Notes: a model not told the origin generated them from the sequence alone. DNA of 30,597 nt from Acidobacteriota bacterium (GCA_031408165.1 JANOJK010000540.1:1-30597), one strand, 5' to 3'. Positions 18,089 to 22,240 are shown, numbered from the stretch's first letter. Made by a program: numbers and translations.

Positions 18089-18343
18089 ATGAGCCCAGTC
18101 GGCTTGGCATTGAATGAGCGTTTCGAGATGGTGTGCCGGAGCGAGCTCGTGCGTCTCCGGCGGAAGACCGCGTCACTCAGCCCCGAAGATCGGGCCAGCG
18201 TCGATGCGCTGACGCTCGAGTTGGCCCGGCGGCTTGCGGTTCGTCTGGACGCTGCGCTCCAGGGACCAGGCAGTGCGGGCCTCGCGCCCGTCCTGATGCG
18301 CCTGTTCGCCGTCTCGCCACCTGCTTTGGAGGAACGCTTATGA
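18089..18343 (+). CDS. Small helical protein resembling the glutamyl-tRNA reductase (HemA) C-terminal dimerisation domain; start uncertain (17984, 18011 or 18089)
   Basis: LNERFEMVCRSELVRLRRKTASLSPEDRASVDALTLELARRL...LMRLFAV follows the recalled GluTR C-terminal pattern (LR..FE.IR..EL.RL..KL..LS.E.R..VD.LT..LV.KL...L..LF.L). The stop overlaps the cytochrome c ATG, whose SD lies within this ORF. Confidence 0.55.
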   Translation: MSPVGLALNERFEMVCRSELVRLRRKTASLSPEDRASVDALTLELARRLAVRLDAALQGPGSAGLAPVLMRLFAVSPPALEERL

Positions 18344-18687
18344 AACGTGTGTTGATTGGAACCCTTGCGGCGCTCGCGCTGGCGGCGTTCGCTGCCCCGG
18401 CGTCAGCTCAAGACGCGAGACTGGACAAGGGCGCGAAGGTCTACGCCGAACAGAAATGCATGATGTGCCATTCGATCGCCGGCAAGGGGAACGCCAAAGG
18501 GGCGCTGGACGAGGTGGGCACGAAATTGACGGCCGAGGAAATCCGCCAGTGGATGGTGGATCCGGTTGCCATGACGGCCAAGCACAAGGCGGTCCGCAAG
18601 CCCCCGATGCCCGCGAAGTTCAGCGCGCTGCCGAAGGACGATCTGGACGCGCTCGTCGCGTACCTGTCCTCGCTGAAGAAAAAGTAG
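18340..18687 (+). CDS. Periplasmic class I monoheme cytochrome c (115 aa)
   Basis: Start corrected to ATG 18340 (GGAGG upstream). Signal peptide ending ASA-Q, CMMCH, distal Met in KPPMP, and DLDALVAYLSSL. Confidence 0.93.
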   Translation: MKRVLIGTLAALALAAFAAPASAQDARLDKGAKVYAEQKCMMCHSIAGKGNAKGALDEVGTKLTAEEIRQWMVDPVAMTAKHKAVRKPPMPAKFSALPKDDLDALVAYLSSLKKK

Positions 18688-18745
18688 ACGCACCGGCGCC
18701 GGTCATCGAGCGCTCCACTGACTCGCGGACCACGCGGAGGGCACG

Positions 18746-20065: not shown

Positions 20066-20897
20066 GCTCGCCCCCGACGCCGCACCCGAGCGGCACGTGC
20101 TGCGGTTCGACCGCCTCGATCGGACGCTCCACGGGTTCCTGATGCTCAGCTTTCTGGGCCTGGCGGCGACCGGCCTGCCGGTGCTGTTCAGCGACGCCCC
20201 GTGGGCGCCGCGCATGGCGCGGGTGCTCGGTGGCTACACCGTCGTCCACCTGATGCACCGCGTGTTCGCGACGGTCATGATCGGGGTGTTCTCCGTGCAC
20301 GTGTGGCGCCTCGTCACGCGCGTGGCCATCCGAAAGGACTACGGCATCTTCTGGGGGCCGCGATCGATGGTCCCCCAGCCGAAGGATCTCGCCGACATGT
20401 ACGGCCACTTCCGATGGTTCCTGGGGCTCGGCCCCAGGCCGGCGTTCGACCGGTTCGCGTACTGGGAGAAGTTCGACTACTGGGCGGTGTTCTGGGGGAT
20501 GGCGATCATCGGCGGGTCCGGCCTGATGCTGTGGTTCCCCGAGGCGTTCGCGCGCGTGCTGCCAGGCTGGGTCTTCAACATCGCGCTGCTGGTGCACGCC
20601 GAAGAGGCGCTGCTGGCCGCCGGTTTCATCTTCACCATCCACTTCTTCAACAGCCACCTGCGGCCCGAGAAGTTCCCGATGGACATGGTCATCTTCACCG
20701 GCCGCGTGACGGAGCGGGAGCTGCAGGTGGAGCGGCCGGCGGAATACGCGCGGCTGGCGGCGGCCGGGCCGCTGCCGGATGCGGGGCCTCCCTCCGCCCG
20801 CGTGTGGATGGCCGGCCGCGTGATAGGCTCCGCCGCAGTGATTCTCGGCCTGGCGCTCGTCGGATTGATCCTCTACGCGGTAGCCCCTCACCTATGA
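20058..20897 (+). CDS. Di-heme cytochrome b, FdnI/HydC type (CbcL-like cytochrome b module), 279 aa
   Basis: Start ATG 20058, overlapping the upstream stop. TM histidines (TLHGF, LMHRVF, LVHAEE, TIHFFNSH) and the motifs FDRFAYWEKFDYWAVFWG and HLRPEKFPMD. Confidence 0.88.
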   Translation: MSELAPDAAPERHVLRFDRLDRTLHGFLMLSFLGLAATGLPVLFSDAPWAPRMARVLGGYTVVHLMHRVFATVMIGVFSVHVWRLVTRVAIRKDYGIFWGPRSMVPQPKDLADMYGHFRWFLGLGPRPAFDRFAYWEKFDYWAVFWGMAIIGGSGLMLWFPEAFARVLPGWVFNIALLVHAEEALLAAGFIFTIHFFNSHLRPEKFPMDMVIFTGRVTERELQVERPAEYARLAAAGPLPDAGPPSARVWMAGRVIGSAAVILGLALVGLILYAVAPHL

Positions 20898-22240
20898 AAC
20901 GACACCCCCTGTCCGTCGCCGGCGTGGCGATTGTCACGCTCAGCGCCGTGATGTTCCTGTTCGTGCTGCTGCTCGACGTGTTCGGGCTGCACACCAACCC
21001 GTATCTGGGCATCGTTTTTTTCCTGATCCTGCCGATGATTTTCATTGGCGGGCTGCTGCTGATCCCGCTCGGTATCTATTTCGAGCGCCGCCGCACGGCC
21101 AAAGGTCTCGCGCCGCGCGGCTGGCCACGGCTCGACCTGAACGATCCCGTCCACCGGCGCGGCGTCCTCGCCGTCGCGGCGCTCACGCTGGTGAACGTGA
21201 TGATCGTCTCCCTCGCCGCTTACCGCGGCCTGGAGTTCATGGACTCGCCGCAGTTCTGCGGTCAGGTGTGCCACACCGTCATGGAGCCGGAGTTCGTCGC
21301 GTACCAGGAAGGGCCGCATTCCCGCGTGCGCTGCGTGGACTGTCACATCGGCCCCGGGGCGCCGTGGTTCGTGAAGGCCAAACTGGACGGCACCCGGCAG
21401 GTGCTCGCGGTCATGCGCGGCACCTACTCGAAGCCGATCGGCACCCCGGTGCACAACCTGCGTCCGGCGCGCGACACCTGCGAGCAGTGCCACTGGCCCG
21501 AGAAGTTCCACGGCGACAAGGTCGAAGTCATCCGCGAGTACGGGAACGACGAGAAGAACACCGAGTCGGTCACGCGCCTCCTGGTGCACGTCGGCGGCGG
21601 CAGCGAGCTCCTCGGCACCGCGTCGGGTATTCACTGGCACATGAACGTCGCCAACGAGATCGACTACATCGCGACCGACGAGAAGCGGCAGATCATCCCG
21701 TACGTGCGCATGAAGGATCGGCATGGCACCGTGCGCGAGTTCCGGGCGCCCGGCGTGACCGACGAACAGATCGCAAAAGGGGAGCGGCGGCGGATGGATT
21801 GCGTGGACTGCCACAACCGCCCCAGCCACCCCTTTTCGGCATCACCCCAGCGCGCAGTGGACGAGGCGATTGCGCGCGGGGAGATTCCGCGCTCGCTCCC
21901 GTTCGCGCGCCGGGAGACCGTCGAGGCGCTGAAGGTGGGGTACGCCACCCGCGCCGACGCGGAACGGGACATCGCGACGCGCATCCGGACCTTCTACGGC
22001 CAGAACTACGCCTCGCTGGTCCCCTCGCACGGCACCCAGATCGACCAGACCGTCCTCACCGCTCAGCGGCTCTACGCGCGCAACGTGTTTCCGGGAATGA
22101 AAGTGACCTGGGGCACGCACGAGAACAACCTCGGGCACACCGACGCGCCGGGCTGTTTCCGTTGCCACGACGATCAGCACAAGACCGCCGACGGCCGCGT
22201 GATCAAGCAGGACTGCGACCTCTGTCACGACCTGCAGTAA
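20894..22240 (+). CDS. NapC/NirT-domain inner-membrane multiheme cytochrome c, ImcH-like (448 aa)
   Basis: Start ATG 20894. Three N-terminal TM helices and six heme motifs (CGQVCH, CVDCH, CEQCH, CVDCH, CFRCH, CDLCH). Also NLRPARDTCEQCHWP, GIHWH and NVFPGMKVTWGT. Confidence 0.88.
   Translation: MKRHPLSVAGVAIVTLSAVMFLFVLLLDVFGLHTNPYLGIVFFLILPMIFIGGLLLIPLGIYFERRRTAKGLAPRGWPRLDLNDPVHRRGVLAVAALTLVNVMIVSLAAYRGLEFMDSPQFCGQVCHTVMEPEFVAYQEGPHSRVRCVDCHIGPGAPWFVKAKLDGTRQVLAVMRGTYSKPIGTPVHNLRPARDTCEQCHWPEKFHGDKVEVIREYGNDEKNTESVTRLLVHVGGGSELLGTASGIHWHMNVANEIDYIATDEKRQIIPYVRMKDRHGTVREFRAPGVTDEQIAKGERRRMDCVDCHNRPSHPFSASPQRAVDEAIARGEIPRSLPFARRETVEALKVGYATRADAERDIATRIRTFYGQNYASLVPSHGTQIDQTVLTAQRLYARNVFPGMKVTWGTHENNLGHTDAPGCFRCHDDQHKTADGRVIKQDCDLCHDLQ

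Follow-up and report, generated by a model that had tools for sequence, protein, structure and literature searches.

ImcH (GSU3259) and CbcL (GSU0274) are the best-studied exits from the quinone pool in Geobacter, where their genes are unlinked and their partners partly known, and where both proteins are constitutive, CbcL being gated by potential at the protein level. By homology, ImcH oxidises menaquinol at an NrfH-like site on the periplasmic face of the membrane, with release of the protons outside. Its haem-1 pocket combines a Gln distal ligand with a Lys that is proposed to belong to the quinol site, a Tyr and an acidic residue (bioRxiv 10.1101/2023.05.03.539133). CbcL belongs to the CbcL/MtoC/MtrH family, for which 3-23 CXXCH motifs have been reported in the c-type part. 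Of its six helices, the first three bear one His each and the fifth bears two (Joshi et al., 10.1101/2021.04.15.440034), and proteins of the CbcL type are thought to oxidise quinol at a cytoplasmic-face site of FdnI fold and to send the electrons outward via two b haems, which costs membrane potential (10.1101/2021.04.15.440034). A survey from 2018 counted only two CbcL homologues in Acidobacteria and found mtrAB adjacent to no imcH (PMC6295460). Here we describe a stretch of 30,597 nucleotides (nt) from an Acidobacteriota bacterium (GCA_031408165.1 JANOJK010000540.1:1-30597), in the following called the window, in which a CbcL-type cytochrome divided over two genes stands in tandem with an ImcH-family gene, and in which a gene for a monohaem cytochrome c precedes them. 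The four co-oriented cytochrome genes, c1 (monohaem), c11 (11-haem), cyt b and the ImcH-like gene, occupy positions 18340-22240 of the plus strand.

The window DNA (about 69% G+C) is an entire contig of a metagenome-assembled genome (MAG) of 5.35 Mb in 1237 contigs, 86.5% complete, and the source names of the closest protein matches indicate that the host is a soil acidobacterium of Vicinamibacterales type. A preliminary description of this DNA had read the four genes as a monohaem c, an 11-haem c, a cytochrome b and a hexahaem protein of the NapC type, and all four are indeed present in that order, as are both sequence motifs that it quoted for cyt b. It had also noted that the last three genes are joined by stop/start overlaps, and these amount to 8 nt between c11 and cyt b (ATGAGTGA) and 4 nt between cyt b and imcH (ATGA), the gap between c1 and c11 being 58 nt. 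Co-transcription of the cytochrome genes, likewise suggested there, is supported by all signs in the sequence. Among NCBIfam families, none names any of the four genes above its cut-off, and their identities were derived from motifs, helices, folds and relatives.

The products of c11 and cyt b, taken together, are on these grounds assigned to the CbcL/MtoC/MtrH family as a split member of its 11-haem subclass, having all defining features of the family except the single polypeptide. The CXXCH motifs of c11 (at residues 53, 87, 110, 140, 168, 212, 240, 270, 295, 325 and 353) are followed by a single hydrophobic helix (391-409), bearing a His that is conserved in fused forms, and the protein is 43% identical over 366 aa to the fused 726-aa protein P0177, a match covering the eleven motifs as well as the helix with its His. 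Furthermore, the motif positions and the first helix lie within 0-5 residues of those of a published 11-haem protein (WP_069963319.1, 722 aa, Lacunisphaera; Table in PMC6295460), and judged by this collinearity c11 is the N-terminal part plus helix 1 of the fused CbcL-type proteins. Its partner cyt b, which by the same token is equated with helices 2-6 of CbcL, shares 45% of 277 aligned residues with the b domain of P0174, a fused protein of 617 aa and nine haems whose motif spacing resembles that of GSU0274 as tabulated in PMC6295460 and whose relatives in a sequence search are from Syntrophus, Desulfopila and other Desulfobacterota. A search of the PDB with the cyt b sequence returned nothing useful. 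The AlphaFold2 model of the subunit (pLDDT 94.1) consists of five long helices, and its sole significant fold match in the PDB is FdnI (1kqf_C, Foldseek probability 1.00). Four His residues of cyt b (His25, His67, His180 and His195) are invariant or at least 90% conserved in 40 family sequences, and together with the His in the helix of c11 they reproduce the pattern of six helices and five His described for CbcL.

An exhaustive HMMER search with cyt b returned 2240 relatives, and the best 150 cluster representatives are mostly fusions in which the b domain lies C-terminal to 2-22 CXXCH motifs, about one third being without a haem-c motif. Many of these 150 are 11-haem fusions of 676-730 aa, a range that includes the combined length of the pair in the window (439+279 = 718 aa). 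The proposal that CbcL is here split into two subunits is thus borne out by the collinearity of haem motifs and first helix with the fused 11-haem members, but the two extra haems that had been regarded as a feature of the split are not one, since fused CbcL-type proteins with eleven haems are common.

The split itself is real and not a frameshift, since a stop of c11 and a start of the b gene, mostly as ATGA, are found at the same junction in 20 other independently assembled genomes, the frame differing in 19 of the 20. The cut falls in the cytoplasmic loop after helix 1, c11 ending in a charged tail and cyt b starting with an Arg-rich segment. In a tree of 95 b domains the cyt b of the window falls, with 97% support, among 14 stand-alone forms that make up a clade within the fused ones, and across the family splitting, or apparent splitting, evidently arose several times. 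In one relative (locus L019, G023:C5, 4284-5697) the c11 orthologue itself lies in two overlapping frames with 5 and 6 haem motifs, next to an intact cyt b and imcH, which is either an assembly error or a pseudogene. Genomes bearing the module also often hold a second, distant CbcL-type b (32-40% identity; for example G005:C36, G022:C154:263329, G026:C16 and G031:C7), mostly in frames of up to about 900 aa; these copies are probably fused forms, and split and fused CbcL may thus coexist in one genome.

The last of the four genes is, as judged from helices, motif spacing and homology, a member of the ImcH family, and the preliminary description was right in likening it to ImcH. Its three hydrophobic helices (8-26, 39-57 and 91-109) compare with those of GSU3259 at 13-35, 45-67 and 100-122 (Table S3, PMC6295460), and it has six haem motifs, of which the first, CGQVCH at residue 122, is of the CX3CH kind and the others, at 147, 196, 303, 421 and 441, are CXXCH. 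The term hexahaem NapC-type protein is accordingly apt as to the six motifs and three helices, with the nuance that the set consists of one CX3CH and five CXXCH. All six motifs are invariant in 10 of 10 aligned relatives, and their intervals equal those between motifs 1-6 of GSU3259 to within one residue, being collinear with OFW05244.1 as well (Table S3, PMC6295460). NrfH (2j7a_C) matches residues 85-193 with an E value of 2.6e-4, in line with the NapC/NirT homology. GSU3259 has seven motifs, and the C-terminal seventh haem is missing here; such a six-motif ImcH is within the published range of the family, and many of the homologues tabulated from Acidobacteria, Anaeromyxobacter and Geothrix also go without the seventh haem (PMC6295460). 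A tie to a published homologue is given by an identity of 64% over the full length to an open reading frame (ORF) of locus L036 in the MAG RIFCSPLOWO2_12_FULL_66_21, which matches OFW24447.1 of Table S3 (PMC6295460) in length (455 aa) and motif positions, and this locus contains the same operon with a split CbcL pair. As for the haem-1 pocket, K163 and Q169 are invariant among relatives and, by offset mapping only, lie as far from motif 1 as do K173 and Q179 in GSU3259, and by motif offset only Y178 and D117 likewise fit Y188 and E127.

The first cytochrome gene encodes a protein with a Sec-type signal peptide and a single CXXCH (CMMCH at residue 40), and its haem probably has a Met ligand in a PPMP motif. 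Among solved chains the best match of c1 is 3mk7_C, the haem domain of the CcoP subunit of cbb3 oxidase (E value 8e-6), and the PDB sequence search (E <= 0.01) returned only cbb3 CcoP, the glucose dehydrogenase beta subunit, two chains of cytochrome oxidase subunit II and one generic cytochrome c. Homologues of c1 adjoin imcH in 23 of 97 loci, and c1 is the one soluble cytochrome kept with imcH in both of the operon types described below. The claim that the monohaem protein shuttles electrons to MtrA was overstated, and what speaks for it is genomic, namely the c1 homologues found between mtrB and imcH in relatives.

The genes c11, cyt b and imcH are passed on together. The order was sampled with 41 genomes, which on account of their kinship are not independent; 15 of them have an orthologue of imcH (at least 57% identity), and it is these very 15 that have one of cyt b (at least 60%), the two genes being immediate neighbours in every case, while the remaining 26 have neither. 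The order c11-cyt b-imcH is present in all nine of these loci that were fetched with flanks, most of them also having upstream a radical-SAM gene, two small ORFs (orfX and orfY) and c1, and overlaps between the stop of cyt b and the start of imcH recur in several relatives. A second group of imcH genes (39-46% identity) occurs without the bc pair; a c1 homologue stands before imcH in six of the nine loci of this kind that were fetched, and most of the group adjoin mtrB in the order mtrA-mtrB-(c1)-imcH. Genetic linkage to the outer-membrane conduit is also seen in three relatives from other families, where the full module is followed directly by mtrA-mtrB, and strings of imcH-mtrA-mtrB occur in relatives. 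Over the 41 genomes both imcH and MtrB/PioB are present in 21, imcH only in 2, MtrB only in 4 and neither in 14, figures that describe an association and are not a statistic. Interrupted copies of mtrB-linked imcH were encountered at G020:C10:135484-136795 and G024:C4/C13, one with an internal TGA and the others in 2-3 pieces, which suggests decay or sequencing errors in that paralogue group.

Beyond the order, a scan with one genome per species gave 591 imcH-like loci, and the best 80 of the 591 were examined. Almost all of these are from Acidobacteriota, a few being labelled Zixibacteria, Binatia or others, and 50 of the 80 have the six-motif form of ImcH. The tandem of imcH with a CbcL-type gene is common outside Geobacter: 62 of the 80 related loci have a CbcL-type b on the strand of imcH at a distance of up to 6 kb, 39 of them as a fusion (mostly with 11 or 13 haems) and 23 split. 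Among these 62 the b gene precedes imcH in 44 and follows it in 18, and its identity to the cyt b of the window ranges from 31% to 69%. For 12 of the 18 loci without a CbcL-type gene, the available sequence extends less than 3.5 kb from imcH in one direction. In the ImcH tree the linkage is found in all three major clades, with differing gene orders and CbcL subclades, and selection for co-localisation of the two is therefore suggested. Three of the loci (L049, L074 and L108) are Acidobacteria-like imcH operons in MAGs titled Bifidobacteriaceae or Patescibacteria, and these titles are likely due to mis-binning or mislabelling of public MAGs. Neither the tandem nor the split was found described for Acidobacteriota in our literature searches. 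Relative to the literature searched, the conserved natural split of a CbcL-type protein, the fixed tandem with ImcH that is common in Acidobacteriota and the position of imcH immediately beside mtrAB and a monohaem c gene are new, the parts themselves being members of known families.

The operon probably comprises seven genes, radical-SAM, orfX, orfY, c1, c11, cyt b and imcH (Table 1), since the first three are conserved directly 5' of c1 in most relatives bearing the module and since the stop of orfY overlaps the start of c1 (ATGA). The radical-SAM gene is found 5' of the cytochrome genes at 67-82% identity in loci L017, L018, L019, L021, L023, L025, L036, L040 and L042, and in locus L038 the radical-SAM match is downstream of them on the other strand. 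Searches of Pfam and NCBIfam gave no family for orfX, and the sole family match of orfY is a weak one to the C-terminus of glutamyl-tRNA reductase (E value 0.007).

Table 1. Genes of the window discussed in the text; positions are counted from its first nucleotide.
Feature	Position	Strand	Basis
MtrB/PioB-family outer-membrane porin	4458..6815	-	PF11854 141.9 bits
MtrA/DmsE-family decahaem cytochrome	6758..7699	-	TIGR03508 235.6 bits (cut-off 192.2); Pfam Paired_CXXCH_1
Variant radical-SAM protein, conserved upstream member	16541..17776	+	NCBIfam NF045502 175.5 bits (cut-off 125)
orfX, small conserved protein	17787..17987, start approximate (where conservation begins)	+	tblastn 50-80% identity, same position, nine relatives
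orfY, small helical protein	18089..18343, start approximate	+	conserved 5' of c1 in L017-L022 and L024
c1, secreted class-I monohaem cytochrome c, 115 aa	18340..18687	+	PF00034 (Cytochrom_C) 46.5 bits
c11, periplasmic 11-haem cytochrome c, C-terminal helix, 439 aa	18746..20065	+	11 CXXCH; several Pfam multihaem families
cyt b, FdnI-fold dihaem b subunit, five helices, 279 aa, no CXXCH	20058..20897	+	PF01292 32.0 bits (cut-off 30.1)
ImcH-family six-haem inner-membrane cytochrome, 448 aa	20894..22240	+	PF03264 (NapC/NirT) 38.2 bits (cut-off 24.1)

The MtrA-like protein of the window is likely, by its family, the periplasmic end of an outer-membrane conduit. Between mtrAB and the cytochrome operon lies a hypF-C-D-E-A-B maturation set with a membrane protein lacking a family match (8193-14701), and an epimerase-like gene on the minus strand stands after the hyp genes and before the radical-SAM gene. 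No hydrogenase structural gene and no MtrC-type surface cytochrome were found within the window. On the 3' side imcH is followed by a convergent gene for a BON-domain protein, by maf and then by genes of the Ccm (System I) haem-attachment set at 23557-26415 and 28229-30218, in which CcmF carries a CcmH-like domain at its C-terminus in one 816-aa ORF and which continues with ccmA-like and ccmC-like genes further on. Sequences resembling the sigma-54 consensus (TGGCAC-N5-TTGC, with 1-2 mismatches) are found at 7791-7806, 8159-8174, 16434-16449 and 22824-22839, in part near the starts of mtrA and hypF, but a scan of the whole window gave 9 matches against 9.6 expected by chance, and no promoter is therefore claimed. 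A scan for sigma-70 promoters and terminators was uninformative in DNA of 69% G+C.

We consider it likely that the core of the operon specifies a soluble carrier of the periplasm and two inner-membrane cytochromes that interact with quinones, and that these serve an MtrAB-type conduit. The first of the membrane cytochromes would be the two-subunit bc-cytochrome of c11 and cyt b, with an 11-haem chain, a His-bearing helix and a dihaem b subunit, whose conserved H-F-F-N-x-H-L-R-P pocket in cyt b, the putative quinone site, is expected at the cytoplasmic face. The second, the ImcH-like protein, would have a NapC/NrfH-like quinol site at the periplasmic face, beside the CX3CH haem. By homology, both may pass electrons from (mena)quinol via their periplasmic haems to c1, from which MtrAB-type porin-cytochrome conduits would receive them, with protons released outside by the ImcH branch and inside by the b-type branch, so that the latter could reach acceptors of lower potential. 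We lean, with moderate confidence, towards an outward direction of electron flow. The preliminary description had furthermore ascribed different redox windows to the two quinol oxidases, which is a carry-over from Geobacter and was overstated for this locus. Co-transcription would be compatible with different working potentials, because Geobacter makes both proteins constitutively and gates CbcL at the protein level. A single physical complex fits the strict co-inheritance and translational coupling equally well, and we prefer parallel use of the two proteins, as in a gear shift, over one complex by a slight inclination only. A proton-pumping quinone loop between the two sites was considered and rejected, as it would have no net redox drive.

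Several observations weigh against this proposal. The mtrA gene of the window is outside the cytochrome operon, about 11 kb upstream on the opposite strand with the hyp genes between. Membership in the CbcL family was judged via published motif tables and cluster representatives, and ImcH membership via published motif tables and a published acidobacterial homologue, these standing in for GSU0274 and GSU3259 themselves; the lineage is known here from its genes alone, and the kinship of the 41 genomes has been mentioned. The protein c1 looks, by sequence, like a high-potential class-I cytochrome with His/Met ligation, of the oxidase-associated CcoP type, and is unlike the trihaem carriers of low potential to which ImcH and CbcL of Geobacter pass electrons; Geobacter ImcH is reported not to interact with the monohaem cytochrome PccH. 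Finally, haem-copper oxidases and a bc-type cytochrome b are encoded in the genomes, which fits inward or oxygen-linked flow too, and in one relative (G017) a gene of the COX1 family directly precedes mtrA-mtrB.

One alternative, which we hold to be possible at a rather low probability, is that the ImcH-like protein, c11, cyt b and perhaps c1 form one obligate heteromeric complex, in which the haem chains of the ImcH-like protein and c11 touch and a periplasmic and a cytoplasmic quinone site are combined in one enzyme. This would account for the joint presence or absence of cyt b and imcH in the 41 relatives and for the c11 gene upstream of them in every fetched locus, for the overlapping stop and start codons here and in several relatives, and for the linkage of imcH with CbcL-type genes in all three acidobacterial ImcH clades. 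In Geobacter, however, imcH is monocistronic and far from cbcL, and each of the two works without the other; likewise, the imcH subclade in the same order which lost the bc pair sits with mtrAB and c1 alone. An extended version, which appears rather unlikely, is that the ImcH-type protein, the split CbcL pair and c1 form a supercomplex with a shared haem network that joins quinone sites on the periplasmic and the cytoplasmic face, in which the proton-per-electron yield is switched with acceptor potential and which replaces the separate pathways of Geobacter; if that were true, the division of the gene after helix 1 would be adaptive, in that it helps the complex to assemble.

Another tentative alternative, no more probable than the obligate complex, is that electrons flow inward and that the operon forms the inner-membrane end of a Mto/Pio-like oxidation of extracellular Fe(II), Mn(II) or reduced humics, MtrAB taking up electrons and an MtoD-like c1 handing them to an oxidase, and to the quinone pool via the MtoC-like c11 and cyt b and the CymA-like ImcH-type protein. 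Such a direction is consistent with the occurrence of MtoC proteins, which are CbcL homologues, and of NapC/NirT proteins in mtoAB clusters of Fe(II) oxidisers (PMC6295460), with the lack of a gene for an MtrC-type surface cytochrome in the window, with the class-I, CcoP-like character of c1, with the presence of haem-copper oxidases and with the COX1-family gene before mtrA-mtrB in G017, which has a second monohaem c divergent from it. Against this, the only organisms with which ImcH homologues have been connected to date are Fe(III) reducers, presumably neither of the quinone sites would let the proton-motive force drive uphill quinone reduction, and the PDB matches of c1 are limited to the few oxidase, dehydrogenase and generic chains listed above. 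At 7686-13473 of the G017 locus (L115, G017:C13:231900-251899) an N-terminally extended COX1-family member of 696 aa, perhaps qNOR-like, is encoded directly 5' of mtrA-mtrB on the same strand, the second monohaem cytochrome c gene is divergent from it, and a sigma-54 activator and a tetrahaem cytochrome follow just after imcH, an arrangement that hints at a conduit linked to oxygen or nitric oxide reduction.

A function unrelated to extracellular electron transfer, in which the operon would be a general quinol:cytochrome c branch leading via c1 to an oxidase or to nitric oxide, nitrite or other reductases and the linkage to mtrAB would be incidental, seems improbable to us. NapC/NirT-type proteins do commonly serve periplasmic reductases, the porin was not found in the module-bearing genomes G010 and G031 (the latter 97% complete), and the module is flanked by unrelated genes (BON, Maf). 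Yet such a function would hardly explain why imcH is so strongly associated with MtrB/PioB and why it repeatedly adjoins mtrAB directly, the conserved gene string contains no reductase gene, and a canonical bc-type cytochrome b is already present in the genome. Even less probable, and here rejected, is that cyt b is the membrane anchor of a formate dehydrogenase or NiFe hydrogenase. This notion stems from the Pfam and NCBIfam names pointing to FdnI/HydC and the FdnI fold, from the hypF-C-D-E-A-B set 4-10 kb upstream and from the label 'cytochrome b subunit of formate dehydrogenase' that source databases give to relatives, but neither the window nor the relatives have a structural gene for a dehydrogenase or hydrogenase next to cyt b, the match to the FdnI equivalog TIGR01583 reaches only 33 of the 116 bits required, in the nearest relatives the b domain is joined to multihaem c domains, and cyt b has a fifth helix that is missing from FdnI. 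The notion that a normally fused CbcL gene only looks split because of a frameshift introduced in assembly or sequencing, to which the fragmentation of the MAG and the extra frame break inside c11 of L019 could lend some colour, is refuted by the comparison with the 20 other genomes and has next to no probability left, the charged tail after the helix of c11, the conserved N-terminus that cyt b has of its own and the supported clade of stand-alone b proteins all speaking against it.

In a large and abundant soil phylum the genes of the two families, unlinked in Geobacter, are thus usually neighbours, and in one order they are passed on together with CbcL in split form, while imcH can also adjoin mtrAB and the gene of a monohaem cytochrome c. 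The conserved neighbours offer candidates for proteins that work with ImcH, and a natural two-subunit CbcL should be easier to express and dissect. Furthermore, the module may serve to mark genomes of Vicinamibacterales and other Acidobacteriota with a potential for extracellular electron exchange, bacteria about whose part in the iron and manganese cycles of soils little is known.

The described systems resemble the locus to different degrees. CbcL (GSU0274) and its family share with c11 and cyt b the succession of a multihaem c chain and a six-helix, FdnI-like dihaem b part, but in the window this is cut into two genes after helix 1, has 11 haems and not 9, and stands in a fixed operon with imcH and a monohaem c in Acidobacteriota. 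ImcH (GSU3259) likewise has three N-terminal helices, a CX3CH right after helix 3 and the same spacing of motifs 1-6, and differs in having 507 aa and seven motifs as against 448 aa and six. Furthermore, imcH is monocistronic in Geobacter, whereas that of the window is translationally coupled to a cytochrome b gene and those of relatives stand directly beside mtrAB, which was found for no imcH in the 2018 survey (PMC6295460). As to the fold of cyt b, FdnI of E. coli formate dehydrogenase-N (1KQF chain C) shares the four-helix dihaem fold with its four His ligands, with TM-scores of 0.62 (query length) and 0.78 (target length) at 18% identity, but cyt b has an extra C-terminal helix, no dehydrogenase partner genes and a multihaem cytochrome c as partner.

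Two further systems are close in architecture. CbcBA (GSU0593-0594) also pairs a c subunit having a single His-bearing C-terminal helix with a separate dihaem b subunit, and the cbcBA operon is sigma-54 dependent, a sigma-54 activator being found beside the module in one relative. CbcA has seven haems, however, as compared with eleven in c11, and CbcB, a thiosulfate-reductase-like cytochrome b, has four helices and is reported to be without sequence homology to CbcL (10.1101/2021.04.15.440034), whereas the cyt b of the window, set against CbcB by description, has five and groups with CbcL-type fusions; the five helices and this kinship argue against membership in CbcBA (Cbc5). The mtoA-mtoB-mtoD-mtoC and cymA clusters of Gallionella ES-2, Dechloromonas RCB and Sideroxydans ES-1 consist of the same parts, that is, a decahaem cytochrome of the MtrA type, a porin, a monohaem class-I cytochrome c and a CbcL-type and/or NapC/NirT-type protein, likewise with no MtrC. 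In those clusters c1 has its analogue in MtoD by cluster role only, as sequence similarity to a solved MtoD-like chain was not detected in the PDB (E <= 0.01). What sets the window apart from the mto clusters is that both types of inner-membrane cytochrome occur together and that the NapC-like one is of the ImcH type, not CymA.

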